Shown one piece after another: positions 4,582 to 19,641 of a stretch of 19,641 nt of DNA. The position numbers and the translations under genes were made by a program. A model generated the notes under the pieces. That model searched no databases and was not told the DNA's origin. It saw only the letters and a list, made by a program, of their open reading frames with translations. The stretch is from a virus (taxonomy: Duplodnaviria > Heunggongvirae > Uroviricota > Caudoviricetes). Location: IMG/VR virus record IMGVR_UViG_2778261231_000016, positions 1 to 19,641 of that record; one strand, 5' to 3'. The number at the start of each line of letters is the position of its first letter. The first letter of the stretch is position 1.

Positions 4582-4592
4582 CCATCAACGAA

Positions 4593-4614
4593 AAAGCCCA
4601 CATCTGTGGGCTTT
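4593..4614 (+). terminator. Stem-loop downstream of the autotransporter stop (AAAGCCC-loop-GGGCTTT)
   Basis: Seen: inverted repeat AAAGCCCACA / TGTGGGCTTT starting 12 nt after the TGA at 4579-4581. The following T-tract is weak (TTTCATGTT), so intrinsic-terminator function is uncertain. Confidence 0.45.
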
Positions 4615-4741
4615 CATGTTACCAGGAGCCGCGGCTCCTTTGCGTATCCTTTTATGTCTCCTCACCGTCTGGTCGGTGTTTTGCTGAGACTTCTAACTTC
4701 CTGTTTTTGTTGGTGTTGTCCTTACACCGTCCAATCATGAT

Positions 4742-4785
4742 TGGTGGGCTGGCGGGAGTTGAACCCGCGTCCGAAATTCCTACAT
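4742..4785. repeat. att direct repeat: second copy of the ssrA 3' end (island boundary distal to ssrA)
   Basis: Seen: TGGTGGGCTGGCGGGAGTTGAACCCGCGTCCGAAATTCCTACAT at 4742-4785 matches 18582-18626 (the 3' end of ssrA, minus-strand gene) apart from a single missing A after TGGTGG. Identity stops after CCTACAT on both copies. Confidence 0.9.
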
Positions 4786-4980
4786 ACCATTTTTATTATA
4801 GTAAAAACAGTAGATTATGTTTGAAAACAATGTGTTAGTGTTATTTTGTATTTGCTCGTCTTACGCGTTTTTAATGCTCTGCCGCCAAAGTGCCGCCATT
4901 ACATCAAGCATCTAGAATAAAATTAGTTAATAAATTATAATTAATATGCTAATTGTTCTTGCATTCATAAGTGGGACGTG

Positions 4981-6714
4981 ATGAAAGAAAAAAAATTCGT
5001 TAGTGAGCTTTTCCTTGAAAATGGGCAGTTTATTTTAGTCGGTTTGACAGGTCGAACTGGTTCTGGTTGCACAACAACAGCTAATATTCTTGAAAACGAA
5101 AAAACAGTCTTCCCTGATGTAAGTAAATTACAGGGGTTTTACAAGGGATTGGATGTCCATCGTTATAATATAGTTAAAAAATTCGCAGAAAATCACTGGG
5201 AAAATTTTTACTCAATTAAGGTGAGTGACCTAATCTCAGCGTATCTTCTGATGTTAACAGTTGAGGAAGCTTCTGAATTCATTCTATCATCTAATAAATT
5301 TATCAGTAAAGGGCATTTAGATATTGTATTAACTTTTGGTGTATTCTCAGATAATCTCATTTTGACAAGATTTAAAAATGTAATTGAGAATTTGCTTGAT
5401 CATAATAGTGAATTGAAGCTTGATGAAAAAACGATTAATAAATTTATATCAATTTTGAAGTTAGTTAGAAAATTTACTAAAGAATTCAAAGCTGAACTAA
5501 ATGAGATAAACTCAAATTTATATGTTTCAGCCTATCAGTTAGCAGGTAAGTCAATTAGACGTCGTGGGCGTATTGAAGTCGATTTTGAAGATAAAGAGTT
5601 TATGCCTAAATCTGTTTTTCATTTGCCGGAAACTATTAATAGGGTTATTAAATTAATAAGAAAAAGCAAAAGAGATAACGCATTAATTGTCATAGATGCT
5701 ATTAGAAATCCATATGAGGCAAAATTTTTTAAGGATAGATATTCTGCATTTCATTTAATGTCAATAAATGCCCCAGATGAACATCGAACAAACTATTTGC
5801 GGAAACTACATAAGTTTTCAGAAAAGCAGATAGAGGAAATAGATTCTGTAGAGTCAGGTAAAGGTGATAACTCTTACAAACATCTCACCAATCCAAATGT
5901 AACTAAATGTATTGAACTATCAGATATACACATTTTTAACCCAAAAAATGAATTTGATAATGATAATATTTTAAAAGCACAATTAGCGTGGTACATCGCA
6001 CTGATGAAGCATCCTGGTCTGATAACACCTACTGCAATGGAAAGGGTTATGCAAGTTGCGTATACGGTAAAATTAAACTCTGGCTGTATATCTAGACAGG
6101 TGGGAGCTGTAGTAACTGATGGTGATAATTCAATAAAATCAGTTGGTTGGAATGATGTTGCCAACGGTCAGATTCCTTGCTCTATGAGATCTCTAGATGG
6201 CCTAATGAACGATTTTGATGAAAAAACGTACAGTCATTATGAGAGAAATAATAGTTCTTTCAGAATTAAAGCTAATGAGAAACTCTTAAATTTTAGGGCG
6301 ATAGATAAAACTGGTGATATTTATAGAGGCAGGAACTTATCTTATTGTTTTAAAGATATACATAATGATCTTGATAAAGAGAAAAAAGGTAATCAAGTTC
6401 ATACACGTGCATTACATGCTGAGGAAAACGCATTTTTACAACTTGCAAAATATGGTGGTATTGGCGTTCTTGGGGGGAAGTTGTATACAACTGCCAGTCC
6501 CTGTGAGTTGTGTGCGAAAAAAGCTTATCAGTTAGGTATATCTGAAATTGTATTTATTGATCCCTACCCAGGTATAGCTCAAGACCATATTATTAATATA
6601 GGTAGTAAGCCACCAAAGTTAATACAATTTAGAGGCGCAATTGGGAAGTCATATCACCGACTTTATGAGCAAATTATCCCGATAAAAGATGAGTTAGAAT
6701 ATCTCCTTGAGTAG
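4981..6714 (+). CDS. P-loop nucleotide-kinase-like domain fused to cytidine/dCMP-deaminase domain; AvcD/DcdV-like antiphage nucleotide-depletion enzyme (577 aa from ATG 4981; GTG at 4978 is an alternative start)
   Basis: Seen: P-loop G-L-T-G-R-T-G-S-G-C-T-T at 5041-5076 with Cys where the Walker-A Lys is expected; deaminase zinc motifs H-A-E at 6415-6423 and P-C-E-L-C at 6499-6513; very AT-rich compared with flanking phage genes. Established: this two-domain architecture is characteristic of AvcD/DcdV and the dCTP-deaminase defence proteins. Family assignment is from motif recognition only. Confidence 0.7.
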   Translation: MKEKKFVSELFLENGQFILVGLTGRTGSGCTTTANILENEKTVFPDVSKLQGFYKGLDVHRYNIVKKFAENHWENFYSIKVSDLISAYLLMLTVEEASEFILSSNKFISKGHLDIVLTFGVFSDNLILTRFKNVIENLLDHNSELKLDEKTINKFISILKLVRKFTKEFKAELNEINSNLYVSAYQLAGKSIRRRGRIEVDFEDKEFMPKSVFHLPETINRVIKLIRKSKRDNALIVIDAIRNPYEAKFFKDRYSAFHLMSINAPDEHRTNYLRKLHKFSEKQIEEIDSVESGKGDNSYKHLTNPNVTKCIELSDIHIFNPKNEFDNDNILKAQLAWYIALMKHPGLITPTAMERVMQVAYTVKLNSGCISRQVGAVVTDGDNSIKSVGWNDVANGQIPCSMRSLDGLMNDFDEKTYSHYERNNSSFRIKANEKLLNFRAIDKTGDIYRGRNLSYCFKDIHNDLDKEKKGNQVHTRALHAEENAFLQLAKYGGIGVLGGKLYTTASPCELCAKKAYQLGISEIVFIDPYPGIAQDHIINIGSKPPKLIQFRGAIGKSYHRLYEQIIPIKDELEYLLE

Positions 6715-6745
6715 AAATATTATACTCATCCTTCCTGAGGTAAGC

Positions 6746-6779
6746 TTCAAGATGATCAATAAATATTGATCATCTTGAA
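6746..6779. repeat. Perfect 15-bp inverted repeat with 4-nt loop (TTCAAGATGATCAAT aaat ATTGATCATCTTGAA)
   Basis: Seen directly, 32 nt downstream of the deaminase-fusion stop. Contains two GATC sites. No T-tract follows on either strand, so it is not a canonical intrinsic terminator. Confidence 0.8.
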
Positions 6780-7095
6780 AGTTAATTGCAGAGTCAAACT
6801 AGTAGTCAGACTGAAGCTTCGATAAAAAATGTTTTTGTTTTTTTTCATTTTCTAATGACTGTTTTTTATTGGTTTCTTTTTAATGTTGCAATGCTATGCT
6901 TTTCTACTATTTTTGAATGTGGCATCTTTGATGTTTTTATACAACAAAGATGAGGGCCTATAGGTTTTTTTGTGATGTAAAAATTATCTTATTCTATAAA
7001 TAAAACCTAAACTCAGTCTGAAGAGTTAAATGAGAATGGATAACCTGCTGAATATTATATTTGTAAATAGTTTGAGTTTGTTTTCATAAGTTACT

Positions 7096-8112
7096 CTATC
7101 TTAAGTTGCATAAAGGGTTTTTAGTTACCGCATCTTCAAGGTGATCGGGCGAAAAGTGGGCGTAAATCATCGTCATTTTTATATCGGCATGGCCCAGAAT
7201 ATCGCGCAGCACCAGTATGTTTCCGCCATTCATCATAAAATGGCTGGCGAATGTATGACGTAGCACGTGAGTGCATTGGCCCTCTGGCAGCTCGATGCCA
7301 GCTCGCTTTACTGCTCGTTCAAAGGCTTTTCTGCACGGGGTGAATAGCTTCCCTCTGTTCTTGGGGAGTTCGTCATACAGATCTTGAGATATCGGCACGG
7401 TGCGGTTTTTCTTACCCTTCGTCTTGGTATAAGTGATGCGGTATTTAGATAACTGATGGCCCTGCAGGTTTTCAGCTTCACTCCAGCGTGCGCCGGTGGC
7501 CAGGCATATTTTTGCAATCAAAAGCAGACTGGGGTTTTGAGAATCAGCGCAGGCATCTAGCAGACGTTTAATTTCTTCCGAGGTCAGGAACGCCAGTTCC
7601 CCCTCAGCGATTTTAAATGTTGGCAGCCCGGCGAGAGGATTTGGTGCTGACCAGTGGCCTAGTTTTTTCAATGTGCCGAAAACCGATGATAGGTTACGTT
7701 GCTCAAGATTCACCGTGCGTGGTTTTACTGGCGACATTAGTGTGCCGTCTTCGTTACGAACGTCACCTTTTAACCGTGCTTCGCGGTATTTCGTAAAGTC
7801 ACCGGCTGTCAGTTCTGAGGCGATGGGGTCGCCTAGACCATTACAGATAATTCTAAGTTTCGCCATGAGGCGCTTGGGGTCTGCGAGTGTCTGACCATAC
7901 AGGGAATACCAAAGCTCAATTAATTCTGATAGGCGTCGCCGATCATCCTTTTCACCCAACCACGGTTTTTTATTCACTTCTTCCATTGTGAAGCTTTCAA
8001 AAGCAATGGCTTCGCCTTTCGTAGCAAATTGCTTACGCACGCGCTTACCATTGCGTCCATTGGGATAGCACTCACACAACCATTTTCCGTTCGGCTGTTT
8101 TCTGATGGTCAT
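7096..8112 (-). CDS. int: P2/186-type tyrosine integrase (338 aa)
   Basis: Seen: N-terminus MTIRKQPNGKWLCECYPNGRNGKRVRKQF resembles the P2 Int N-terminus; C-terminal catalytic region has ...ATGARWSEA..., HVLRHTFASHF and ...IYAHF (tyrosine recombinase R/H-x-x-R/Y signature). Start abuts the cI stop. Confidence 0.95.
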   Translation of the reverse strand: MTIRKQPNGKWLCECYPNGRNGKRVRKQFATKGEAIAFESFTMEEVNKKPWLGEKDDRRRLSELIELWYSLYGQTLADPKRLMAKLRIICNGLGDPIASELTAGDFTKYREARLKGDVRNEDGTLMSPVKPRTVNLEQRNLSSVFGTLKKLGHWSAPNPLAGLPTFKIAEGELAFLTSEEIKRLLDACADSQNPSLLLIAKICLATGARWSEAENLQGHQLSKYRITYTKTKGKKNRTVPISQDLYDELPKNRGKLFTPCRKAFERAVKRAGIELPEGQCTHVLRHTFASHFMMNGGNILVLRDILGHADIKMTMIYAHFSPDHLEDAVTKNPLCNLR

Positions 8113-8113
8113 A

Positions 8114-8746
8114 TCAAAGGCTCTTAATGATTTTCAGTGCGCGGCCTACTACCTCAATGTCATCTAGGCCACATTCAAACGATGAATCATCCTGATGCAC
8201 TACTAATTTGTTTCCCGGAAGTCGAGTCAATTTAACAATGCTTTTTATCCCGTCAATATCGACTAACCACATACCATTTACTGGTGGTGTTTGGTTGCGA
8301 TCTATTAAATAAGAATCACCAGAAGTAGTCACCAGCAGTAGGTTGCTTGAGTCTGAGGGGAGTATGCTGCTATCAATGATTGCTTTTCCAGCATCGACCA
8401 ATAAACCACCGTTGAGAGTCGCCTTGTCAATTTCAGGAGATACTAGTTTAGAAAGAGGTACAACCTTGCTGGAGTTCACGGAATTGATATTTTTTTTAGG
8501 TTCAATGTTTGGACCTGGCTCCCCCTGTCCGGTGGTTAGCCACAGTAAAGAAACTCCTGTTTCCAAGGCGCACTGAATCACCCACTCTGCAGGAAAACTA
8601 TCTCTTAAGTATCTGTTTGCCATGGTGCTTTTTGATGCGCCTAAGTGATCGCAAAGTTGCTGTCTGGACTTGAAATCATAGGCTGCCATTAGTCTATGGA
8701 TAGCCTCTCTTCCCCCTGTATTCTCTCCAACCTTTACCTGTATCAT
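8114..8746 (-). CDS. cI: CI-type immunity repressor (186 CI-like, 210 aa)
   Basis: Seen: position immediately upstream of int on the same strand; HTH-like N-terminal region (KSRQQLCDHLGASKSTMANRYLRD); RBS AGGA 7 nt before ATG at 8746; faces an operator-containing intergenic region. Homology judged by eye. Confidence 0.8.
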   Translation of the reverse strand: MIQVKVGENTGGREAIHRLMAAYDFKSRQQLCDHLGASKSTMANRYLRDSFPAEWVIQCALETGVSLLWLTTGQGEPGPNIEPKKNINSVNSSKVVPLSKLVSPEIDKATLNGGLLVDAGKAIIDSSILPSDSSNLLLVTTSGDSYLIDRNQTPPVNGMWLVDIDGIKSIVKLTRLPGNKLVVHQDDSSFECGLDDIEVVGRALKIIKSL

Positions 8747-8758
8747 TTTTTAATCCTG

Positions 8759-8810
8759 TTGACGTATCAAATATTGGATCGTAGTATCTCGATGTATCAA
8801 ATATTGAATC
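8759..8810 (+). promoter_or_regulatory. Rightward lytic-type sigma70 promoter overlapping duplicated 17-bp operator-like repeats
   Basis: Seen: -35 TTGACG (8759-8764), 17-bp spacer, -10 TAGTAT (8782-8787). Direct repeats GTATCAAATATTGGATC (8764-8780) and GTATCAAATATTGAATC (8794-8810) lie 30 bp apart centre to centre, the first occupying the promoter spacer. Also tandem ATAAAACGA at 8813-8821 and 8823-8831. Confidence 0.55.
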
Positions 8811-8865
8811 AAATAAAACGAGATAAAACGACGTAAACCAAACCTTAATCGGGAGATACTGCACT

Positions 8866-9108
8866 ATGAGCACTGATATTTCAATTCGTGTACCAAAAGA
8901 GATGGCTACGCCTGCAGAGTTCGCGGAATGGGAAGGTATCTCCCGCGGCTCTGTGTATCAAAAAATTCATCATGGTCAGCTTGCTAAATACATGGTCAAG
9001 AAAGAAAAAAACAAAGGCCGCGTAAGCCTGCGTTATTTAATGTACAAAACCGATCAGGTCCGTGAATCCCTCGGTCATTCCAACTTCCGCGTCATTGTTG
9101 GTAAGTAA
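8866..9108 (+). CDS. Small HTH protein in the apl/cox position (putative excisionase / lytic-switch regulator, 80 aa)
   Basis: Seen: first gene downstream of the rightward promoter and divergent from cI; excisionase-like HTH segment TPAEFAEWEGISRGSVYQKIHHGQL; RBS GGGAGA upstream. Assignment by position and motif only. Confidence 0.45.
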   Translation: MSTDISIRVPKEMATPAEFAEWEGISRGSVYQKIHHGQLAKYMVKKEKNKGRVSLRYLMYKTDQVRESLGHSNFRVIVGK

Positions 9109-9140
9109 GTTCAATTATGAGAACTTTCTAAGGGGGTAGC

Positions 9141-9485
9141 ATGTTTGATTATAAGATTTCCAAACACCCGCATTTTGATGAAGCCTGTAGAGCTTTTGCA
9201 CTTCGTCACAATATGGCGAAGCTGGCAGAACGTTCAGGAATGAATGTCCAGACTCTGCGAAACAAACTCAACCCAGATCAACCGCATCAGCTCAATGCGC
9301 CAGATATCTGGCTACTTACCGATCTGACGGAAGATTCAACGCTGGTAGACGGTTTTCTGGCACAGATTCACTGCCTGCCATGTGTACCGATTAATGAGGT
9401 GGCAAAAGAGAAACTGCCACATTACGTCATGAGTGCAACCGCAGAGATCGGGCGTGTTGCTGCAGGTGCGGTACCGGTTTTCTAA
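9141..9485 (+). CDS. cII: Phage CII-family regulatory protein, apparently C-terminally truncated (114 aa)
   Basis: Seen: RBS AAGGGGG before ATG; N-terminal region MFDYKISKHPHFDEACRAFALRHNMAKLAERSGMNVQTLRNKLNP matches my recollection of 186-type CII proteins. Those are ~165-170 aa by memory, and here the ORF stops right at the junction with the tail-fibre stub. Confidence 0.65.
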   Translation: MFDYKISKHPHFDEACRAFALRHNMAKLAERSGMNVQTLRNKLNPDQPHQLNAPDIWLLTDLTEDSTLVDGFLAQIHCLPCVPINEVAKEKLPHYVMSATAEIGRVAAGAVPVF

Positions 9486-9871
9486 AATATAACGGAGCGT
9501 CATTCAACAAGGCAATGTATCCCAAACTTGCACAAATTTTCCCGTCAGGAGTATTACTTGATTTGCGCGGCGTATTTATTCGAGGCTGGGATGATGGAAA
9601 AGGGATTGATGCCGGGCGTGCAATACTGACACAGCAGCAGGATGCCCAGCAAAATATCACCGGCATGGTTTCTGATATGACAGTCGGCGTAAATGCTGAC
9701 GGAACAGGTGCATTTAGTATGGTCGATTTAACTACATCAGGCATTTCGGCAGGTGCACTAAATTCTTTTTATCAAAAGCATATTTATCTGGATTCCTCCA
9801 GAGTGGTCAGAACGGCAACTGAAAACCGTCCGGTAAATATCGCATTCAACTACATTGTGAGGGCTGCATAA
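9486..9871 (+). pseudogene. Tail-fibre (H-like) C-terminal remnant, 5'-truncated
   Basis: Seen: frame is open from just after the cII stop; translation contains the tail-fibre collar-like motif ...NGASFNKAMYPKLAQIF...LRGVFIRGWDDGKGIDAGRA...; no N-terminal fibre domain or proper start; stop overlaps the G start (TAATG at 9869-9873). Confidence 0.65.
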
Positions 9872-10458
9872 TGATGAACGCAGATTTAGCCATTTTAGAG
9901 AACGGTATTGCGACAACCGCCGGATGGATAACGATATATAACTATTCGGCGGTTACAGGTGAATATCTTGACAGCAACAGTGAATACATTCCAGAAGGTG
10001 TTGGATTGCCTGCGCTGGCAACAGATATTGAACCGCCGAACAGACCGGACGGTCAGGCTGTTATCTGGCAGGGTTCGTGGATACTGATGGATGACTGGCG
10101 GGGTGAAACGGTTTATTCCATTTTTGATGGTTCTGCCAGTATCGTGGATTACCTCGGGGCAATCGCAGAGGGATATACACAACAGAAACCCGCAACCCGT
10201 TTTGATAAATGGGATGGTAAGCAGTGGGTGACTGATACTGACGCGCGAAATACGGAAGCTGTTGCAGTTTCTACGCAACAGAAAGCTGCATTGCTGGCTG
10301 AAGCCACCGCGACCATAGCACCGCTTCAGGATGCAAAAGACGGAGGTTATATTGATGATGCTGATATTCCGATGTTGATTTCTTGGCAAAAATATCGCTA
10401 CGCGCTGACTAAAGTTAATCCTAAAACTCCTGTTTGGCCCAGCAAACCAAGTGTATAA
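9871..10458 (+). CDS. Tail-fibre assembly protein (P2 G-like, 195 aa)
   Basis: Seen: start overlaps the upstream fibre stop as in P2 H/G; 195-aa product in the expected position before the G-FI accessory slot. Similarity to gpG-type chaperones judged by eye. Confidence 0.8.
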   Translation: MMNADLAILENGIATTAGWITIYNYSAVTGEYLDSNSEYIPEGVGLPALATDIEPPNRPDGQAVIWQGSWILMDDWRGETVYSIFDGSASIVDYLGAIAEGYTQQKPATRFDKWDGKQWVTDTDARNTEAVAVSTQQKAALLAEATATIAPLQDAKDGGYIDDADIPMLISWQKYRYALTKVNPKTPVWPSKPSV

Positions 10459-10470
10459 ATGGTAATATAA

Positions 10471-10505
10471 AAGGCAGTTCACTCTATGATGAACTGCCTT
10501 TTATA
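10471..10505. terminator. Bidirectional stem-loop between convergent G and the 110-aa cargo ORF
   Basis: Seen: AAGGCAGTTCA (10471-10481), 8-nt loop, TGAACTGCCTT (10490-10500), followed by TTTAT on the plus strand and TTATATT on the minus strand. Confidence 0.6.
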
Positions 10506-10524
10506 ACGAGCATCAAAATATAGA

Positions 10525-10857
10525 TTATTTACCAAACAAAGAAACTATGTTGACTGCGACTGTGGTGATATCAGTCGCAGGTTTTAGCCATTTACTGATT
10601 TCATACTTGTCAAGGATTGAAGGGTACTCACTTGCTTCAACTGTTTTCAATTGATGTGCCGCTTGATTAATGTTTTCAAGTGGCGCGCCGGGAATGAAAT
10701 TTTCTTCTAGAAAGCTTTTTTGGCTTTCATATATTGATATCGCCTCGCCATTTCCAGAAAAAGTAGTTTCTTTAAAAACTAACTCTGTACACTCTGGTGC
10801 TCGAACTCCAATCGTATTATTAATAAAAGTACAACCCTCGAAAGTATGCTTACCCAT
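10525..10857 (-). CDS. Hypothetical protein (110 aa), AT-rich cargo in the G-FI (P2 Z/fun-equivalent) slot
   Basis: Seen: ATG at 10855-10857, stop followed by the stem-loop above; opposite orientation to all flanking late genes; markedly lower GC than neighbours; no recognisable motif, no signal peptide or obvious TM segment. Confidence 0.6.
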   Translation of the reverse strand: MGKHTFEGCTFINNTIGVRAPECTELVFKETTFSGNGEAISIYESQKSFLEENFIPGAPLENINQAAHQLKTVEASEYPSILDKYEISKWLKPATDITTVAVNIVSLFGK

Positions 10858-11032
10858 TTTTAGATTTTACCTTGGTTGCGTAGTGAAACCATTAGTTTAC
10901 ATCTTTCACCAGTAGCAATAAAAATGATGGTTAAGAATTGAGACGAGTATCACTGAACTATACATGCTGACCAAAGGAACCTTTCAAAGAATTTAAATGC
11001 GCTGCTAACGATCATTTTTCGTCAATATCAAT

Positions 11033-11050
11033 TGTGCTATTTCCCACACA
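11033..11050 (+). promoter_or_regulatory. Candidate Ogr-dependent late-promoter element (TGT-N12-ACA) upstream of the FI operon
   Basis: Seen: TGTGCTATTTCCCACACA at 11033-11050, ~75 nt upstream of the FI ATG. Established: P2 late promoters carry a TGT-N12-ACA dyad centred near -55 recognised by Ogr. Single motif match, so moderate confidence. Confidence 0.45.
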
Positions 11051-11124
11051 TAGCCCACTACGTGCGCCGCGTGCATATCAACCAGAACATAGGCACACCC
11101 CCTGTAAACCGGAGAGACTGCCTT

Positions 11125-12297
11125 ATGGCTCAGGATTACCACCACGGGGTGCGCGTTGTTGAAATCAACGAGGGCACCCGATCCATTACCACGGTGAGCA
11201 CCGCCATCGTGGGCATGGTCTGCACCGGCGATGATGCTGATGCGTCCATGTTTCCCCTCAATAAGCCGGTCCTGCTGACCGATGTGCTGACTGCCAGCGG
11301 TAAAGCGGGCGAGTCCGGCACGCTGGCCCGTTCGCTGGATGCGATTGCAGACCAGGCTAAACCCGTGACCGTCGTTGTGCGCGTGGCACAGGGCGAAACC
11401 GAAGCGGAAACAACCTCCAACATTATCGGCGGCGTAACTGCTGACGGTAAAAAAACGGGTATGAAAGCGCTGCTTTCGGCGCAGTCGCAGTTGGGCGTCA
11501 AGCCGCGCATTCTCGGCGTGCCGGGGCATGACACGCAAGCGGTTGCCACTGAGCTGCTGAGCGTGGCGCAGAGCCTGCGCGGGTTTGCCTACCTGTCCGC
11601 TTATGGCTGCAAAACGGTAGAAGAAGCGATTGCCTACCGTGACAATTTCAGCCAGCGCGAGGGGATGCTGATCTGGCCTGACTTCATCAACTTTGACACC
11701 GTGCTGAATGCCGACGCGACGGCTTACGCCTCCGCCCGTGCGCTCGGCCTGCGCGCCAAAATTGACGAGCAGACCGGCTGGCACAAAACCCTGTCCAACG
11801 TGGGCGTGAACGGCGTTACCGGCATTTCCGCTGATGTGTTCTGGGATCTGCAGGACCCGGCAACCGATGCGGGACTACTGAACCAGAACGACGTCACCAC
11901 GCTTATCCGCAAAGATGGCTTCCGCTTCTGGGGTTCCCGCTGCCTCAGTGACGATCCTCTGTTTGCCTTTGAGAACTACACCCGCACGGCGCAGGTGCTG
12001 GCTGACACCATCGCAGAAGCGCACATGTGGGCGGTGGATGGCGTACTCAACCCGTCGCTGGCCCGTGACATTATCGAAGGTATTCGGGCCAAGCTGTGCA
12101 GCCTGAAAACACAGGGCTACATCATCGGCGCAGACTGCTGGCTGGATGAGTCGGTGAACGATAAAGACTCCCTGAAAGCCGGGAAACTCACTATCGACTA
12201 CGACTACACGCCGGTGCCGCCGCTTGAAAACCTGATGCTGCGCCAGCGCATCACCGATCAGTACCTGCTGGATTTCTCCAGCCAGGTCAGCGCGTAA
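11125..12297 (+). CDS. Contractile tail sheath protein (P2 FI homologue, 390 aa)
   Basis: Seen: RBS GGAGAG 8 nt upstream; N-terminus [35 protein letters not shown] closely matches P2 FI (MSDYHHGVQVLEINEGTR...). The ORF-track start at 11032 is an upstream in-frame extension I do not believe. Confidence 0.95.
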
Positions 12298-12306
12298 GGG
12301 GACACC

Positions 12307-12822
12307 ATGGCTTTACCACGCAAGTTAAAACACCTGAACCTGTTCAACGACGGGAACAACTGGCAGGGGATCGTTGAGTCTCTGACCCTGCCGAAATTCA
12401 CCCGCAAGTTTGAGAAGTATCGCGGCGGCGGTATGCCGGGCGCGGTGGACGTGGACATGGGGCTGGATGACGGCGCACTGGACACGGAATTTTCAATCGG
12501 CGGCACCGAACTGCTGTTATTTAAGCAGATGGGCAAGGCCACGGTTGACGGAATCCAGCTGCGTTTCACCGGCTCCATTCAGCGTGACGATACCGGCGAA
12601 GTGCAGGCCGTTGAGCTGGTTGTGCGCGGGCGTCATAAAGAAGTGGATTCCGGCGAGTGGAAAACCGGCGAGAGCAGCACCACCAAAGTCAGCAGCACCA
12701 ACAGCTACGCGAAGCTGACCATTAACGGCGAAGTGCTCTATGAGGTCGATCTGGTCAACATGGTTGAAATCGTTGACGGCGTGGACCTGATGGAAGAACA
12801 CCGTAACGCCCTCGGCCTCTGA
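12307..12822 (+). CDS. Tail tube protein (P2 FII homologue, 171 aa)
   Basis: Seen: immediately follows FI with RBS AAGGGG; size and position as P2 FII. Confidence 0.93.
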   Translation: MALPRKLKHLNLFNDGNNWQGIVESLTLPKFTRKFEKYRGGGMPGAVDVDMGLDDGALDTEFSIGGTELLLFKQMGKATVDGIQLRFTGSIQRDDTGEVQAVELVVRGRHKEVDSGEWKTGESSTTKVSSTNSYAKLTINGEVLYEVDLVNMVEIVDGVDLMEEHRNALGL

Positions 12823-12876
12823 TTAACCTTAACGGCGCGGGAAGCCGCGCCAGTATTTCATTAACAGGAAACGAAC

Positions 12877-13179
12877 ATGAGCGACAAGCTGACTGAAAAG
12901 ACCGTAAAACTGGATACCCCCATCATGCGCGGTAAAACTGAAATTACCGAAATTGTGCTGCGCAAGCCGCAGTCCGGCGCACTGCGTGGCACCCGTCTGC
13001 AGGCCATTATGGATATGGACGTGGGCGCGATGATGACTGTGATCCCGCGAATCTCCACTCCGACGCTGACCGCGCAGGAAATGGCAGAGCTGGACCCCGC
13101 CGATCTGACAGCAATGGCTGTAGAGGTGGTGACTTTTTTGTTGCCGAAGTCGGTGCTTGCCGATTTGCCGACAACCTGA
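12877..13179 (+). CDS. Tail assembly chaperone (P2 E homologue, zero-frame product, 100 aa)
   Basis: Seen: RBS AGGAAA; position between the tube and tape-measure genes; contains the slippery heptamer TTTTTTG (13135-13141) near its 3' end. Confidence 0.85.
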   Translation: MSDKLTEKTVKLDTPIMRGKTEITEIVLRKPQSGALRGTRLQAIMDMDVGAMMTVIPRISTPTLTAQEMAELDPADLTAMAVEVVTFLLPKSVLADLPTT

Positions 13180-13313
13180 CGGTTGATGATCTGGTGGCAG
13201 ATATTGCCACCATCTTTCACTGGTCGCCGTCCATCACTGACGTTATGCCGCTGACTGAGGTGCTGGAATGGCGGCATAAGGCAATTCAGCGAAGCGGGGC
13301 CAGCGATGAGTGA
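12877..13313 (+). CDS. E+E' fusion made by programmed -1 frameshift at TTTTTTG (about 13135-13141); E' frame ends at TGA 13311-13313
   Basis: Seen: the -1 frame after the slippery site is open to 13313 and overlaps the tape-measure start (13306). Established: the P2 FETUD operon makes E+E' by -1 frameshifting at this kind of site. The exact shift codon is not determinable by eye. Confidence 0.65.
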
Positions 13314-16083
13314 TAATAACCTGCGTCTGCAGGTGGTTTTGGGGGCGGTTGACAAGTTAACCCGCCCTTTTAAAAATGCCCAGGCTGGCTCAAAAGAGCT
13401 GGCAGCGGCAATCCGGCAGACCCGCGACCAGCTTAAGCAACTGAGCGATGCGGGAGGCCAGTTAAAATCCTTCGACCAGCTATCGCAAAGCGTGCGCCGT
13501 ACAGGTGCAGAGCTGGATCAGACGAGACTGCGCGCGCAGATGATGACGCGCGAAATGTCATCTTTGGAATCCCCAACAAAAAAACAAACTCAGGCGCTTG
13601 AAGCTCAGTGGCGTGCTGTTGCACGTCTTGAGCAAAAGCAGAAACAGGAAACAAACCAGCTATCTGCAGTAAGGGGGGAGCTTTACAGGCTGGGGTTATC
13701 TGCTGGGGGCGGAGCGCGGGAAACCGCCAGAATTACCCGTGAAACTGAGAAGTATAACCAGAAGCTGGCAGAGCAGGAGCGCAGGCTGCGCGAGGTTGGC
13801 GAGCGTCAGCGAAAGCTCAACGCTATCAAAGCCAAGGCTGAAAAGACCCGTGAGTTAAGGAACTCTCTGGCAGGTAATGGTGCAGGGGAGATGGCGGCTG
13901 GGGTAGCTACTGGCATGACGTTATTGGCTCCAGTAAAAGCCTATTCTGAATCTGAAAATGCCGCTAATCAGCTCGCCGGTTCAATGATGGGGCCGGGCGG
14001 AAAGGTCGCACCTGAATTTGAGAAAATTAACCAGCTGGCGGTAGCGCTTGGAGACAGGCTGCCGGGAACCACTGCAGATTTCCAGAACATGATGACAATG
14101 CTGCGTCGTCAGGGGATGTCAGCACAGGTCATTCTTGGCGGGCTGGGGGAATCGGCGGCTTATCTGGGGGTGCAGTTGCAGATGGCTCCCACTGCTGCGG
14201 CTGAGTTTGCCGCAAAATTGCAGGATGCAACACAGACCTCAGAAAAAGACATGATGAGCCTGATGGATCTGATCCAGAAGGGTTTTTATGCCGGTGTTGA
14301 CTCAGGGAATATGCTGCAGGGATTTTCTAATATCAGCAGCGCCATGAGCATTATTAATCAAAAAGGGATTGAAGCAGCTAAAACTTTTGCTCCGTTGCTG
14401 GTGATGGCTGATCAGAGCGGGATGGCTGGTGAGTCTGCAGGTAATGCTTACCGAAAAATTTTCCAGGCAGCGCTGGATTCAAAAAATATTCAGTCAGTCA
14501 ACGACGATCTGAAAGGCACCGGTATCAACTTCAATTTTTCCAATGGTAAAGGTGGATTCGGCGGGCTGGAAAATATGTACGCCCAGCTGGAAAAGCTTAG
14601 TAAGCTCAACGATGAAACCCGGATGGCAACGATTAAGGATCTGTTCGGTAATGATGCGGAAGTCATGAAAGTCCTTAACACCATGATTGAAAAAGGTATT
14701 AATGGATATCGTGAAACTACCGCCAAACTTGAAAATCAGGCTTCACTGCGGGAACGCGTCGATGCGTCCCTGAATACCCTGGGTAATAAATGGGAAGCCG
14801 CTACAGGTTCCTTTACCAATGCTATGGCTAGTATCGGTGAAACAGTTGCCCCAACATTAAAGAAGCTGGCTGACTGGTTGGGTGAACTGGCTTCGCGTCT
14901 GGATGGTTTTGTTAAACGACACCCACAATTGACCTCAGCGCTGTTTAAGCTGGCAGCTGGCTTTGCCATTGTTGCCACCGCCGCTGGGGTTGTTTCACTG
15001 GCGCTGGCGTCCGTGTTAGGGCCGATGGCAGTAGTGCGAATGAGCGCAGGGGTGATGGAGCTAAAATTTTCATCTGCATTTGGTCTTATTGGGAAAGCAA
15101 TCAGTTCTGTTGGCAAGTCAGTTATATGGCTGGGCCGATTGATGTTTGCAAATCCTATACTGGCTGTCATTGGGCTGATCGCCGCTGGTGCTATTTATAT
15201 CTGGCAGAACTGGGACACGCTTGGACCAAAATTCAAGGCAATGTGGGATGCCGTATGTAATGCCACAAGTACGGCATGGGATTGGATTAAAGAGAAGGCC
15301 AGCGCCGCATGGGAGGGGATTAAGTCACTGTTCTTTAATTATACCTTGCCGGGATTAATAGCTAAAAATTGGGATGCAATAAAAACTGGCGTTTCTGAAG
15401 CGTGGGCCAATATCAGACAATCTATTAGTGATAAATGGAATTCGATCCTGGCTGATGTTGCCGCGCTTCCTGCGAAGTTTCAGGACATGGGCAGCGCCAT
15501 TATTGACAGCATTCTCGATGGAATTAATGCCAAATGGGAGACACTCAAAAGCAAGCTTTCCTCAGTCACAGATTATCTGCCTGACTGGATGACCGGAAAT
15601 AATAAAACACAAGACAAAGCACAGGTGCAGGTGGTTGGTGGAGCAGCGGCTGCTGCCGTTCCGTTTGCCGGGATGTATGACAGTGGTGGGATTATTCCGC
15701 GCGGTCAGTTCGGTATTGTTGGAGAGAACGGCCCTGAAATTGTGAACGGCCCCGCAAATGTGACCAGCAGGCGGCGCACTGCCGCGCTGGCTTCCGTCGT
15801 TGCAGGTGTCATGGGCGTAGCGGCAGCGCCTGCAGAGGCTGCTCCACTACATCCTTACAGTCTGCCTACTGTGGCATATAAACAAAGCCAGCCTGCGAAA
15901 TCTGCCAGCGCGCCGCCAGTGATGCACTTTGAAACTCACGCGCCGATCACTATCTATGCTCAGCCAGGGCAGAGTGCACATGATATTGCCCGTGAAGTTG
16001 CCCGACAGCTTGACGAACGCGAGCGCAAGACCAGGGCTAAAGCACGCAGTAATTTCAGTGATCAAGGGGGATATGAATCATGA
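13306..16083 (+). CDS. Tail tape measure protein (P2 T homologue, 925 aa)
   Basis: Seen: long coiled-coil-rich N-terminal half (Q/E/R/K/A-rich), hydrophobic central segments; located between E/E' and U; stop overlaps the U start. Confidence 0.95.
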   Translation: MSDNNLRLQVVLGAVDKLTRPFKNAQAGSKELAAAIRQTRDQLKQLSDAGGQLKSFDQLSQSVRRTGAELDQTRLRAQMMTREMSSLESPTKKQTQALEAQWRAVARLEQKQKQETNQLSAVRGELYRLGLSAGGGARETARITRETEKYNQKLAEQERRLREVGERQRKLNAIKAKAEKTRELRNSLAGNGAGEMAAGVATGMTLLAPVKAYSESENAANQLAGSMMGPGGKVAPEFEKINQLAVALGDRLPGTTADFQNMMTMLRRQGMSAQVILGGLGESAAYLGVQLQMAPTAAAEFAAKLQDATQTSEKDMMSLMDLIQKGFYAGVDSGNMLQGFSNISSAMSIINQKGIEAAKTFAPLLVMADQSGMAGESAGNAYRKIFQAALDSKNIQSVNDDLKGTGINFNFSNGKGGFGGLENMYAQLEKLSKLNDETRMATIKDLFGNDAEVMKVLNTMIEKGINGYRETTAKLENQASLRERVDASLNTLGNKWEAATGSFTNAMASIGETVAPTLKKLADWLGELASRLDGFVKRHPQLTSALFKLAAGFAIVATAAGVVSLALASVLGPMAVVRMSAGVMELKFSSAFGLIGKAISSVGKSVIWLGRLMFANPILAVIGLIAAGAIYIWQNWDTLGPKFKAMWDAVCNATSTAWDWIKEKASAAWEGIKSLFFNYTLPGLIAKNWDAIKTGVSEAWANIRQSISDKWNSILADVAALPAKFQDMGSAIIDSILDGINAKWETLKSKLSSVTDYLPDWMTGNNKTQDKAQVQVVGGAAAAAVPFAGMYDSGGIIPRGQFGIVGENGPEIVNGPANVTSRRRTAALASVVAGVMGVAAAPAEAAPLHPYSLPTVAYKQSQPAKSASAPPVMHFETHAPITIYAQPGQSAHDIAREVARQLDERERKTRAKARSNFSDQGGYES

Positions 16084-16565
16084 TGATGGTGCTGGGGTTA
16101 TATGTCTTTATGCTGCGTACAGTGCCATATCAGGAGCTGCAGTATCAGCGAAGCTGGCGACACGCCGCCAACAGTCGGGTGAACCGGCGACCATCAACGC
16201 AGTTTCTTGGCCCGGGTAATGACTCGCTGACCTTATCTGGCGTACTGCTGCCGGAAGTCACCGGGGGCAGGCTGTCATTGCTCGCGCTGGAGCAAATGGC
16301 AGAGCTGGGCAAAGCATGGCCTCTGATTGAGGGAAGCGGGACCATTTACGGCATGTTTGTGATCGAGAGCCTGAGTCAGACAAAAACAGAGTTTTTTGAA
16401 AGCGGAATGCCTCGCCGTATTGAGTTTACGCTGACCCTGAAAAGGGTTGATGAGTCGCTGTCTGATATGTTCGGCAGTCTCAGCGATCAGCTCAGTAACC
16501 TGCAGGACTCTGCAACGTCTGCGATAGGTAATATTAAAAATACGGTTGGAGGGTTGCTGCAGTGA
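16080..16565 (+). CDS. Tail protein U homologue (161 aa)
   Basis: Seen: N-terminus MMMVLGLYVFMLRTVPYQELQ...LSLLALEQMAELGKAWPLIEGSGTIYGMFVIESL closely resembles P2 gpU; ATGATGATG start overlaps the T stop. Confidence 0.9.
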   Translation: MMMVLGLYVFMLRTVPYQELQYQRSWRHAANSRVNRRPSTQFLGPGNDSLTLSGVLLPEVTGGRLSLLALEQMAELGKAWPLIEGSGTIYGMFVIESLSQTKTEFFESGMPRRIEFTLTLKRVDESLSDMFGSLSDQLSNLQDSATSAIGNIKNTVGGLLQ

Positions 16566-17662
16566 ATTTTAGCTCTGATCTTTTTGACCTGAACAGCAAA
16601 AGCCCGGCTTTCAGTATCGTCATTGAAGGTAAGGACGTGACGACCGTGCTGGATACCCGCCTGATGAGTCTGACGCTGACGGATAACCGGGGCTTTGAAG
16701 CGGACCAGCTTGATCTGGAGCTGGACGACGCCGACGGGCTGATCGCCCTGCCGCGACGTGGGGCAGTGATTCAGCTAGCGCTGGGCTGGAAAGGCCAGCC
16801 GCTTTTCCCTAAAGGGGCTTTTACCGTGGATGAAATTGAACACAGCGGTGCCCCTGACCGGCTGACCATCAGGGCGCGTAGCGCAGATTTCCGTGAAACC
16901 CTCAATACACGGCGCGAAAAATCATGGCATCAGACAACGGTGGGGGAGGTGGTAAAGGAAATAGCCGCCCGGCATAACCTCAAAATGGCGCTGGGCAAAG
17001 ACCTGACGGATAAGGCGCTGGATCATCTGGACCAGACCAATGAAAGCGATGCAAGTTTTCTGATGAAACTGGCGAGACAGTATGGGGCGATTGCTTCCGT
17101 TAAGGACGGGAATCTGCTGTTTATCCGGCAGGGACAGGGAAGAACGGCGAGCGGCAAGCCGCTGCCGGTTATCACCATCACGCGCAAAGCCGGTGACGGT
17201 CATCGGTTCACCCTTGCTGATCGTGGTGCCTATACCGGTGTTATTGCCAGCTGGTTGCATACGCGTGAACCCAGGAAAAAAGAGACAACCAGTGTTAAGC
17301 GTCGTCGAAAGAAAACCACCACACCCAAAGAGCCGGAAGCAAAACAGGGCGATTATCTGGTGGGAACGGATGAAAACGTGCTGGTTCTTAATCGTACCTA
17401 CGCCAACCGGAGAAATGCAGAGCGCGCAGCAAAAATGCAGTGGGAACGTCTGCAGCGTGGGGTTGCTTCATTTTCCCTGCAGCTCGCTGAGGGGCGTGCT
17501 GATCTCTATACGGAAATGCCGGTGAAGGTTACAGGGTTTAAGCAGCCGATCGATGATGCAGAATGGACCATTACCACCCTGGCGCATTCTGTCAGCCCGG
17601 ATAATGGATTTACAACCAGCATGGAGCTTGAAGTAAAGATTGATGATTTAGAAATGGAATAA
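16562..17662 (+). CDS. Tail protein D homologue (late control gene D-type, 366 aa)
   Basis: Seen: GTG start with RBS GGAGGG 8 nt upstream, overlapping the U stop; size and position as P2 gpD. Confidence 0.92.
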   Translation: MNFSSDLFDLNSKSPAFSIVIEGKDVTTVLDTRLMSLTLTDNRGFEADQLDLELDDADGLIALPRRGAVIQLALGWKGQPLFPKGAFTVDEIEHSGAPDRLTIRARSADFRETLNTRREKSWHQTTVGEVVKEIAARHNLKMALGKDLTDKALDHLDQTNESDASFLMKLARQYGAIASVKDGNLLFIRQGQGRTASGKPLPVITITRKAGDGHRFTLADRGAYTGVIASWLHTREPRKKETTSVKRRRKKTTTPKEPEAKQGDYLVGTDENVLVLNRTYANRRNAERAAKMQWERLQRGVASFSLQLAEGRADLYTEMPVKVTGFKQPIDDAEWTITTLAHSVSPDNGFTTSMELEVKIDDLEME

Positions 17663-17729
17663 ATAAGTTCTTAATATTGATTCTTTGTGTATCATTATTG
17701 AGATTTTAATGGTGACGGAGAATAAAAAA

Positions 17730-17948
17730 ATGATGAATTGCCCAAAGTGTGGACATGCGGCGCACACCCGGAGCAGCTTTCAGGTTACTGATAGCACGAA
17801 GGAGCGTTACTGCCAGTGCCAGAACATTAATTGCGGCAGCACATTTGTCACCCATGAAACGGTTGTACGATTTATCGTTACCCCGACAATAATCAATAAT
17901 GCCCCGCCGCACCCTACGCCGGGTGGTCAAGGGCACATGAATTTTTAA
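17730..17948 (+). CDS. ogr: Ogr late-gene transcriptional activator (C4 zinc finger, 72 aa)
   Basis: Seen: MMNCPKCGHAAHTRSSFQVTDSTKERYCQCQNINC... matches P2 Ogr (MFHCPLCQHAAHARTSRYITDTTKERYHQCQNVNC...) in length and Cys spacing; RBS GGAG 9 nt upstream of ATG 17730. The ORF-track start at 17685 is a TTG extension. Confidence 0.93.
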   Translation: MMNCPKCGHAAHTRSSFQVTDSTKERYCQCQNINCGSTFVTHETVVRFIVTPTIINNAPPHPTPGGQGHMNF

Positions 17949-17954
17949 AACAAG

Positions 17955-17978
17955 AACCTGCTGCGGCAGGTTTTTTAT
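17955..17978. terminator. Bidirectional intrinsic terminator between convergent ogr and the BRCT-domain gene
   Basis: Seen: AACCTGC-tgcg-GCAGGTT followed by TTTTTT (17971-17976) on the plus strand; on the minus strand the hairpin is followed by TTCTTGTTTTAAAAAT. Confidence 0.65.
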
Positions 17979-18457
17979 GCGTCAGGAATTTCACCCGTTT
18001 CTATAAAATGAACAAAACTTTCTTCATCAATGATGATCGTACCCTTCATGCGTGCAGCATTTACTTTGGAAGGGCCAGCATTGTATCCGCAACAGAGCAT
18101 CTGCAGATTTTGAGTAACGGAACTTCTCACTGTCATGCTGTGCGCTTCGGCAACTTCAATCAAACGCTCTTTATCTGCCTTTTTGAAACCTGTAAAACAG
18201 ACGTCAAAAGTGAGGGTTTTGGGCTTGGTGGCCTTGGTTAGATGGATGTAATTTTCCGGTAGGAAGGACTGACAGGCTTGCTGTGCTTCATCAGCAGATG
18301 TGCATTCTTGAAGTATTCTATCTTTACGAAACGTTCTTATTGAATGGGTTGATTGGCATATACCCTGAATGTGGTTATCGCTGTAGCTAACACTGCTTAT
18401 TGAATGGGCACCAATGCGCGCATTCGCATTGATGTAAACAAAGTGCATTTCTTCCAT
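17975..18457 (-). CDS. BRCT-domain protein of unknown function (160 aa from ATG 18455-18457)
   Basis: Seen: C-terminal ~80 aa (TLTFDVCFTGFKKADKERLIEVAEAHSMTVRSSVTQNLQMLCCGYNAGPSKVNAARMKGTIIIDEESFVHFIETG) fits the BRCT pattern of NAD-ligase-type BRCT domains; strong RBS AAGGTGA 6 nt before the internal ATG. The ORF-track start at 18544 would overlap the ssrA terminator and is rejected. Confidence 0.65.
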   Translation of the reverse strand: MEEMHFVYINANARIGAHSISSVSYSDNHIQGICQSTHSIRTFRKDRILQECTSADEAQQACQSFLPENYIHLTKATKPKTLTFDVCFTGFKKADKERLIEVAEAHSMTVRSSVTQNLQMLCCGYNAGPSKVNAARMKGTIIIDEESFVHFIETGEIPDA

Positions 18458-18545
18458 GTGAATCACCTTTATTACACAAACGGTTAAGACGTTATGAACG
18501 GTGGGCAAATTGGCTGCCGCCATTTTGCCGCCACAGCCAAACAAA

Positions 18546-18579
18546 AAGGGGTTACGTTTTCACGTAACCCCTTGTTTTA
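18546..18579 (-). terminator. ssrA intrinsic terminator (stem GGGGTTACG / CGTAACCCC)
   Basis: Seen: hairpin immediately 3' of the tmRNA CCA end on the minus strand, followed by TTTTTGT (minus strand). Confidence 0.75.
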
Positions 18580-18581
18580 TT

Positions 18582-18944
18582 TGGTGGAGCTGGCGGGAGT
18601 TGAACCCGCGTCCGAAATTCCTACATCCTCGGTACTACATGCTTAGTCAGTCTTTACATTCGCTTGCCAGCTGCGGACGGACACGCCACTAACAAACTAG
18701 CCTGATTAAGTTTTAACGCTTCAACCCCAGGCAGGGCTTCCACGCGATCTCTTTTGGGTTTGACCTCTCTTGATCCCCGTCCTAAGAGCGGAGGCTAGGG
18801 AGAGAGGGCTCTAAGCAGGTTATTAAGCTGCTAAAGCGTAGTTTTCGTCGTTTGCGACTATTTTTTGCGGCTTTTTACGAGGCCAACCGCCCCTCGGCAT
18901 GCACCTTGGGTTTCGCAAATCCCGTCGAATCCAGAATCAGCCCC
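18582..18944 (-). ncRNA. ssrA: tmRNA (SsrA), 363 nt
   Basis: Seen: reverse complement begins GGGGCTGATTCTGGATTCGACGGGATTTGCG... and ends ...GGGTTCAACTCCCGCCAGCTCCACCA; contains the tag reading frame GCAAACGACGAAAACTACGCTTTAGCAGCTTAA (ANDENYALAA stop). Matches E. coli ssrA from memory. Confidence 0.97.
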
Positions 18945-19158: not shown

Positions 19159-19641
19159 TTAACGGTGGGCGTTTTTCATGATACGCGCTTTATCCACCTG
19201 CCATTCGCGCTCTTTGATATCTGAACGTTTATCGTGCTGTTTCTTACCTTTGGCGACGCCGATTTTCACTTTGCACCAGGCATTTTTCCAGTACAGGGAG
19301 AGCGCCACTACGGTATAGCCTTCTCGATTGACGCGACCGTACAATGAGTCCAGTTCGCGCTGGTTGAGAAGTAACTTGCGGGTACGGGTAGGATCGCACA
19401 CCACATGCGTGGAGGCCACTGCCATTGGCGTGATGTTTGCGCCAAACAGGAACGCTTCTCCGTCACGCAGAAGGACATAGCTGTCGCTGATATTGGCTTT
19501 TCCTGCGCGCAGGGATTTAACTTCCCAGCCTTGCAGGGCAAGTCCCGCTTCGAACTCTTCTTCGATAAAGTATTCGTGACGGGCGCGCTTGTTAAGCGCG
19601 ATGGTCGCTGAACCAGGTTTATGTGCTTTTTTCTTCGTCAT
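19159..19641 (-). CDS. smpB: SsrA-binding protein SmpB (160 aa)
   Basis: Seen: translation [160 protein letters not shown] is recognisable as E. coli SmpB; adjacent to and co-oriented with ssrA. Confidence 0.97.

Follow-up and report, generated by a model that had tools for sequence, protein, structure and literature searches.

Two separate cargo slots probably flank attP in a deleted 186-like P2-family prophage integrated at ssrA

We analysed a 19,641-nucleotide (nt) stretch of tailed-phage DNA, IMG/VR virus record IMGVR_UViG_2778261231_000016 (hereafter the window), which carries a prophage in the 3′ end of ssrA. The ssrA gene, which encodes transfer-messenger RNA (tmRNA), was located on the minus strand at 18582-18944 by ARAGORN and Rfam; smpB (19159-19641) lies beyond it, and the autotransporter gene ypjA (1-4581) forms the left flank. 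An exact 38-bp direct repeat, GCTGGCGGGAGTTGAACCCGCGTCCGAAATTCCTACAT, bounds the 13.8-kb element, its right copy being the 3′ end of ssrA itself; the chance expectation for an exact 38-mer repeat within 19.6 kb is about 1e-15. Just inside the repeats lie two genes: one for an anti-phage deoxycytidine triphosphate (dCTP) deaminase, between the distal repeat and the integrase gene int, and one for a putative WYL-BRCT protein, between the late-gene activator gene ogr and the ssrA-embedded repeat. A preliminary description of the locus had given the same coordinates, order and orientations for both genes (Table 1). Taking all results together, we conclude with a probability of roughly 0.85 that the element is an internally deleted 186-like P2-family prophage of the Elveevirus type in the ssrA 3′ end, and that its phage attachment site (attP) is flanked by two separate moron slots whose contents are exchanged independently.

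The element has the hallmarks of the 186-like P2 family (Peduoviridae), namely an int/CI/Apl-Cox/CII region, an FI-D operon, ogr, and att repeats at a tRNA-like gene. Its closest phages, Yersinia phage vB_YpM_MLG42 (hereafter MLG42) and Escherichia phage Cartapus, are classed in Peduoviridae, genus Elveevirus. Neither the open reading frames (ORFs) of the element nor comparison with relatives revealed any replication, head/capsid, lysis or baseplate genes. Collinearity with relatives ends inside cII (9473-9487); cII is cut at approximately position 9474 and joined to a tail-fibre C-terminal fragment, with the deletion junction at approximately 9474-9515. Full-length ORFs were kept for int, cI, apl/cox, FI-D and ogr. 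The element is thus defective, as proposed earlier, and retains its immunity genes, ogr and the FI-D tail module, with the exception of the truncated cII. The region from 9515 to 10857 resembles the invertible fibre segment of Cartapus, and no invertase gene is present.

The att repeat is prolonged by 7 bp with one mismatch (4741-4747 versus 18582-18588; G at 4747 and A at 18588). Because phage attP carries A at the mismatch position, the ssrA 3′ end and its terminator are phage-supplied in the lysogen. We also confirmed that the ssrA site of Escherichia coli K-12 holds a different element, CP4-57.

Table 1. Features of the ssrA-integrated prophage, with positions in the window
Feature	Position	Strand	Evidence or remark
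Distal att core (prophage-host junction, ypjA side)	4748-4785		Exact copy of 18589-18626; core single in phages MLG42 and Cartapus
attP P′ arm	4786-4905		Aligns with int-proximal attP arm of MLG42 and Cartapus; kept in all cargo variants
Paired integrase (Int) arm-type sites TGCCGCCAAAGTGCCGCCA	4880-4898		Within P′ arm; resemble 186 arm-type consensus YAYCGCCAYTY
dCTP deaminase, anti-phage; occupant of att-int slot	4981-6714 (ORF start 4978/4981)	+	NF041025, PADLOC, Pfam
AT-rich 381-bp spacer between convergent deaminase and int genes	6715-7095		Perfect hairpin at ~6745-6781
Tyrosine integrase, int	7096-8112	-	Pfam Int_N and Phage_integrase; >597 close relatives in IMG/VR
186-type CI repressor	8114-8746	-	Pfam Phage_CI_repr and Phage_CI_C
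Apl/Cox excisionase-repressor	8866-9108	+	phrog_6912, phrog_575
cII, truncated	9141-9485	+	Pfam Phage_CP76 match covers positions 1-110 of 146
Tail-fibre C-terminal fragment, assembly gene and inverted fibre fragment	9515-10857		PHROG tail fibre/assembly matches, Beta_helix fragment
Tail module FI, FII, E, T, U, D; uninterrupted, full-length ORFs	11125-17662	+	phrog_23 tail sheath; 92-94% nt identity to MLG42
ogr late-gene activator	17730-17948	+	Pfam Ogr_Delta, E=1.4e-20
Putative WYL-BRCT protein, 160 aa; occupant of ogr-att slot	17975-18457	-	BRCT-level matches
Paired Int arm-type sites of attP P arm TGCCGCCATTTTGCCGCCA	18515-18533		attP alignment and motif count
Terminator-like hairpin, bidirectional, phage-supplied, directly after ssrA 3′ end	18546-18573		12-bp stem, T tracts on both strands; kept in MLG42 and Cartapus
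Proximal att core inside ssrA	18589-18626		Exact repeat; tmRNA gene 18582-18944, minus strand

We rebuilt attP by joining the phage-side sequences of the two junctions (18458-18626 and 4786-4977). The rebuilt site was collinear with the contiguous interval running from the BRCT gene to int, or to a slot gene, in MLG42 and Cartapus, and an identical core, terminator and arm-type sites were common to the window and both phages. The paired motif TGCCGCCAnnnTGCCGCCA was found on both arms (18515-18533 and 4880-4898), that is, twice in the window, compared with an expectation of zero in 200 shuffles; its sequence is similar to the Int arm-type consensus given in the annotation of phage 186. Because the rebuilt site follows uninterrupted phage DNA in the same order, the adjacency in the circular form is demonstrated and goes beyond the plausible. 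The proposal that the deaminase and BRCT genes are neighbours in the circle, diverging from attP, therefore holds, as the rebuilt site matches two packaged phage genomes.

For the att-int interval (slot 1), we sampled 80 IMG/VR loci with an integrase 90-100% identical to that of the window (more than 597 close relatives exist). Of the 80 loci, 58 had the ssrA core downstream of int, giving 59 sequences with the window counted along. Slot 1 was empty (132 bp) in 15 loci. It held family A (~400 aa; the "RES" protein of Cartapus) in 17 loci, family B (~360 aa, a membrane protein) in 11, family C (~508 aa) in eight, family D (~220 aa) in two, and the dCTP deaminase in two (L113 and the window). 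Single loci held a Dcd-like plus ThyX pair, family B with an IS5 insertion sequence, families B and C together, and an unclassified insert of 1175 bp. Across the 58 loci (int ≥90% identical), slot 1 thus showed eight kinds of content and one unclassified insert and was occupied in 43, mostly by families without a Pfam or PADLOC match. Families A, B and D had no match in Pfam, PADLOC or NCBIfam. Family C is GapS1 (446 NCBIfam bits, cutoff 320), a described anti-phage protein (bioRxiv 10.1101/2023.03.28.534373), and slot 1 accordingly includes recognised defence systems, the dCTP deaminase and GapS1.

All slot-1 cargo shares one insertion point, bounded by the int stop codon on one side and the P′ arm-type sites on the other. 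Families A to D are co-oriented with int and start 5-30 nt past its stop codon (for example, in loci L155, L116, L176 and L149); in most relatives, the slot-1 gene would probably be the last gene of the lysogenic cI-int operon. Families B and D end within the conserved Int arm-type repeats, so that attP itself supplies the codons for their final residues. The deaminase departs from this pattern: it is encoded on the strand opposite to int, from which the 381-bp AT-rich spacer separates it. In complete genomes, Cartapus has the order BRCT-attP-"RES"-int, slot 1 is empty in MLG42, and the prophage of the enterotoxigenic E. coli (ETEC) strain L3_E36 carries family A. The statement that the ogr-int interval of P2 and 186 contains only attP was correct in part: P2 has no gene between ogr and int, but Orf69 (83 aa) is annotated between attP and int in phage 186. 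The position and orientation of Orf69 are the same as those of the co-oriented families A to D.

One slot-1 insert (L119:8012-9550; IMG/VR 3300028453_000039) encodes two proteins: one of 261 aa, which resembles Dcd/dUTPase and bears a C-terminal membrane helix, and a thymidylate synthase of the ThyX type (255 aa). PADLOC matched neither of them. This cassette may be another system based on the nucleotide pool, standing where the window has its dCTP deaminase.

The slot-1 protein of the window (577 or 578 aa, depending on the start) consists of an N-terminal P-loop kinase-like domain and a C-terminal zinc cytidine deaminase domain. It scored 425.6 bits with the NCBIfam equivalog NF041025 (anti-phage dCTP deaminase; cutoff, 400) and matched the PADLOC dCTPase model with E=9e-146, and its C-terminal domain matched Pfam dCMP_cyt_deam_1 with E=1.6e-14. 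A pairwise alignment gave 72% identity, across the whole protein, with the experimentally validated dCTP deaminase of E. coli AW1.7, which has the same kinase-like and deaminase architecture. The kinase-like nucleotide-binding motif GLTGRTGSGCTT, containing G29/C30 in AW1.7, was identical in the two proteins, and C370 and C401 were conserved together with the HAE and PCxxC motifs. The AW1.7 enzyme depletes dCTP upon infection, and mutations at G29/C30, C370 or C401 abolish defence (bioRxiv 10.1101/2021.04.26.441389). By homology, the window enzyme would switch on upon infection and convert dCTP to dUTP, starving the DNA replication of the invader.

The deaminase gene has a GC content of 29-36%, compared with ~50-58% for the phage backbone, and is thereby marked as foreign to it. 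All 17 out of 17 IMG/VR copies (71-100% identity) had the arrangement core-deaminase-int-cI, beside four different cI types. Because it occupies the same slot down to 71% identity and with four cI types, we regard the deaminase as a long-term passenger of the phage lineage. Among deposited phage genomes, we found no close match to it, only T4-like dCMP deaminases. These data also bear on whether the end genes were borne by the phage at all, as they might instead be remnants of neighbouring ssrA islands, with the pairing of the att repeats being misleading. Tandem P4-like satellites at ssrA in E. coli E47, L3_E36 and CAVP773 would fit such an origin, as would the foreign GC content of the deaminase. 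However, the repeat pair encloses both genes, packaged or complete phage genomes have the BRCT gene and slot-1 cargo in one continuous stretch with attP, and the position of the deaminase is constant across diverged alleles and immunity types. An island origin is already refuted for the BRCT gene, and for the pair of genes we consider it extremely improbable.

The deaminase gene, whose orientation is opposite to that usual in slot 1, presumably has its own promoter; none was identified. Most of the 192 bp upstream is attP arm, completed by a short AT-rich leader, and this stretch shows no conservation with AW1.7. Likewise, an alignment of diverged alleles and the AW1.7 locus around the deaminase gene showed conservation of the attP arm only and nothing in common with AW1.7. 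On the other side of the gene, the spacer at 6715-7095 contains a 37-nt perfect hairpin; it is kept in the 95-100% identical alleles, and the 74-75% identical alleles have ~30 bp instead. Judging from its sequence, the spacer could be an insulator or terminator, or a small RNA locus. The related AvcD enzymes, which belong to the AvcID type III toxin-antitoxin system, are restrained by an RNA antitoxin that decays when transcription is shut off (PMC10511110). For an AvcI-like antitoxin, Rfam found only the tmRNA in the window, and no dedicated AvcI-sequence search was made.

The AW1.7 gene sits in a tRNA-Phe island, whereas the window gene occupies a P2-like prophage slot. The AW1.7 copy (L270:6515-8245, NZ_CP073624) lies between a tyrosine recombinase and a tRNA (Phe) target, in a different element, and the att-cargo-int layout recurs there.

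For the ogr-att interval (slot 2), we retrieved 80 loci by the D protein and read the state of the slot wherever sequence past D existed. The arrangement D-ogr-BRCT-core was found in many loci. The slot was empty in L190, L203 and others, with ogr followed directly by the core (130 bp). In three further loci, the BRCT gene was replaced by other minus-strand genes, encoding a 127-aa secreted protein (L208), a 288-aa HNH-like protein (L235) and a 240-aa membrane protein (L240), respectively. When the ogr-att-int interval was compared, both flanks of attP thus varied among intact and near-intact relatives, in agreement with the proposal of a cargo hotspot beside att.

The most likely start of the slot-2 gene in the window is the ATG at 18457 (160 aa), which is also the call of the Prokaryotic Genome Annotation Pipeline (PGAP) in relatives. 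An alternative TTG start would give 189 aa and is disfavoured because that ORF would run into the terminator. An AlphaFold model built from a 45-sequence alignment (predicted local distance difference test [pLDDT] score, 89.8) predicted a five-strand N-terminal domain, a short helical linker and a C-terminal alpha/beta domain. The C-terminal domain has a BRCT fold, of the DNA-binding RFC1/LigA type. The N-terminal domain carries the motif FVY..G.I.A...S.S..QG.C....LRTFRKDRI, and 17 out of the 45 aligned homologues matched PF13280 (WYL; best E=3e-6); the window protein itself had no PF13280 match at E≤0.01. Searches of PADLOC, NCBIfam and Pfam returned only BRCT-level matches for it, and we found no described function for the protein in the literature. 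The available text of Makarova et al. (2014, PMC4012209) lists WYL-BRCT as an architecture and gives neither a function nor a phage location; the fusion of a WYL ligand-sensing domain to a BRCT domain listed there is also the putative layout of the window protein.

Homologues of the WYL-BRCT protein were found in P2-like phages of Yersinia, Escherichia, Vibrio, Mannheimia, Burkholderia and Pseudomonas. In Mannheimia phage PHL101, the homologue directly follows cI, and a Burkholderia phage has it after the repressor region, immediately beside D. Because its position is comparable in the Mannheimia and Burkholderia phages, we interpret the BRCT gene as a long-resident accessory gene of the lineage and not as a partner of the deaminase. 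The contexts of distant homologues were mixed, with one resembling a defence island and others unremarkable. In the former case (L271:4176-11597; ENA ERZ21873832), a 44% identical homologue lies beside genes for OLD-like AAA/TOPRIM, DUF4238 and TIR-domain proteins, near rpoS/nlpD; this neighbourhood looks like a defence-island context.

A strong bidirectional terminator separates the BRCT gene from ssrA and the cI-int operon, and on that ground we rejected its transcription by read-through from either of them. Because of this separation, the gene probably has its own promoter; a promoter consensus scan of 18458-18545 found none. It lies between the ogr terminator and the P arm and is oriented away from attP.

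As a best guess, held with low confidence, the WYL-BRCT protein may be a lysogen-expressed sensor of nucleic acids or DNA ends that acts in exclusion or defence. It could instead be a core gene of the lineage that serves the phage's own biology, such as lysogeny control, DNA-damage sensing or the handling of integration and excision DNA. In P2-like phages of Yersinia, Escherichia, Mannheimia and Burkholderia, homologues stand beside D at the end where the lysogeny genes lie (after cI in PHL101), which would suit such a role, as would the further homologues in Vibrio and Pseudomonas phages, the GC content of the gene, which resembles that of the phage regulatory region, and the DNA-binding type of the BRCT domain. 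WYL domains of other regulators bind nucleic-acid ligands, according to the available text of PMC4012209, which points the same way. By contrast, the gene is absent from P2 and 186 and from ssrA-integrated relatives whose D is 90-98% identical to that of the window (L190, L203 and others), in which attP follows ogr, and unrelated genes stand in its place in L208, L235 and L240. Homologues also occur outside prophages, including the one in the defence-island-like context. We therefore consider a core-gene role unlikely, though still a serious alternative, and retain the interpretation of an exchangeable slot occupant.

The preliminary description had also treated the two end genes as a single accessory locus across attP, a notion that would have failed had the genes never co-occurred. 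They do co-occur, in the window, in E. coli FDAARGOS_1337, CAVP773, NCTC9038 and E47, and in two IMG/VR contigs. Their association was not consistent, however. On contigs in which both ends of the prophage were present, the BRCT gene was paired with family A in slot 1 in three cases, with GapS1 in two, with family B plus IS5 in one, with an empty slot in two and with the deaminase in two, and BRCT-less elements were paired with family B or an empty slot 1. The intact 33-kb prophage of ETEC L3_E36 combines the BRCT allele of the window (98%) with family A in the int slot. Conversely, a near-identical deaminase cassette (99.7%) was found with two BRCT alleles that share only ~74% identity. A survey of 5426 complete E. 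coli genomes found 173 with the BRCT gene and 20 with the deaminase cassette. The single-locus claim was therefore not sustained. Because the slots assort independently and their genes differ in frequency, they are two neighbouring moron slots and not one functional unit, and the two genes are neighbours by geometry, not partners.

We considered in this context whether the deaminase and the WYL-BRCT protein could form one two-component system that is joined only in the circular phage and deliberately split by integration. The genes are indeed adjacent and divergent across attP, they are found together in at least five E. coli genomes as well as the two contigs, and a WYL sensor beside an effector is a common defence layout in the available text of PMC4012209. 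However, the BRCT gene also accompanies an empty slot, family A, family B plus IS5 or GapS1 (in contigs, Cartapus, MLG42 and L3_E36), it is ~9 times commoner than the deaminase in E. coli, and one deaminase cassette goes with two diverged BRCT alleles. In addition, the cloned AW1.7 deaminase defends alone, and no BRCT-domain gene is annotated within the 15-kb region around the AW1.7 gene. A single functional pair failed the test of consistent co-occurrence and was rejected on assortment and frequencies; the two-component system is already largely refuted, and we rate it as very improbable.

We propose that the two slots are adjacent solely because both abut attP, and that integration would split them to opposite ends of the prophage. 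Their contents would be exchanged independently through recombination in the conserved attP arms and flanking genes. Several points weigh against this interpretation or its defence aspect. Sampling by integrase identity may over-represent some clades, IMG/VR prophage boundaries are often cut, so that both ends were known for 12 contigs only, and the probable placing of slot-1 genes in the cI-int operon rests solely on their spacing and orientation. For the WYL-BRCT protein, the sole PADLOC match, PDC-S48, is confined to the BRCT region, and non-defence chromosomal contexts also hold homologues.

The element is a mosaic of two relatives. Its left arm, with the flank (1-9473), shares 99.8% identity with E. 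coli FDAARGOS_1337 and NCTC9038. For the tail-ogr-BRCT arm (10971-18626), identity was 92-94% to Yersinia phage MLG42 and only 83-84% to the two E. coli strains. None of the complete E. coli genomes covered ≥80% of the whole element. Elsewhere at ssrA, P4-like satellites adjoin the P2-like prophage in CAVP773 (L001:14360-22987), E47 (L268) and ETEC L3_E36 (L279:1-4900), with cargo comprising an Ec67-type retron reverse transcriptase, SIR2, and an AAA ATPase plus DUF4435. In E47, a rearrangement that split and partly inverted the prophage has IS26 at its breakpoint. In CAVP773, we did not find an att core between the BRCT gene and the satellite.

A hotspot beside att has already been published (iLund4u preprint 2024; Nucleic Acids Research 2026), and the deaminase is a known defence gene. 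In their available text, the iLund4u preprint (10.1101/2024.10.15.618418) reports a hotspot between a tail protein and CI, and PMC13586616 reports an integrase-att hotspot in P2-like phages and argues that this site is mobilised with the phage. The latter study counted known defence systems, with 3% of P2 systems at the integrase-att site. The window deaminase lies between att and int, inside the element, and thus falls within this hotspot. As far as the available text of these accounts goes, the place in the genome and the idea are the same, with variable accessory or defence genes beside att/int travelling with the phage; the ogr-side slot, the fixed boundaries (int stop codon and arm-type sites) and the WYL-BRCT gene are details beyond them. 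Other hotspots have been described between gpA and gpQ of P2 and between cI and int in Vibrio phages (Rousset et al., 2022, PMC9122126). The P2 moron sites Z/fun and old/tin likewise hold single-gene or small cassettes of foreign GC content between conserved modules, which exclude other phages. They differ in location: the slots described here flank attP and end up at opposite ends of the prophage, and P2 is empty there.

For one lineage, our analysis adds fixed slot boundaries, a second slot on the ogr side, the independence of the two slots, and an occupancy of slot 1 (43/58) that is mostly unannotated. It shows at base-pair resolution that temperate phages of this lineage put accessory immunity genes beside attP, sparing the phage operons. 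When P2-like prophages are annotated, genes lying immediately within the att repeats should be taken for phage cargo. The slot boundaries (int stop codon and P′ arm sites on one side, ogr terminator and P arm on the other) also offer discovery work a simple route to candidate defence genes, with the WYL-BRCT gene and several unannotated cargo families as the remaining leads. More tentatively, and with less than even odds in our judgement, the slots flanking attP in ssrA-integrating P2/186-like phages may be a much richer, largely unread reservoir of single-gene immunity factors than counts of known systems would indicate, one that includes the WYL-BRCT protein, families A, B and D, the Dcd-like/ThyX cassette and the three other ogr-side genes, with cassettes swapped via the attP arms, possibly between tandem elements at ssrA. 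If this is true, the WYL-BRCT protein would be a new lysogen-expressed sensor of nucleic acids or DNA ends that excludes or regulates other mobile DNA.

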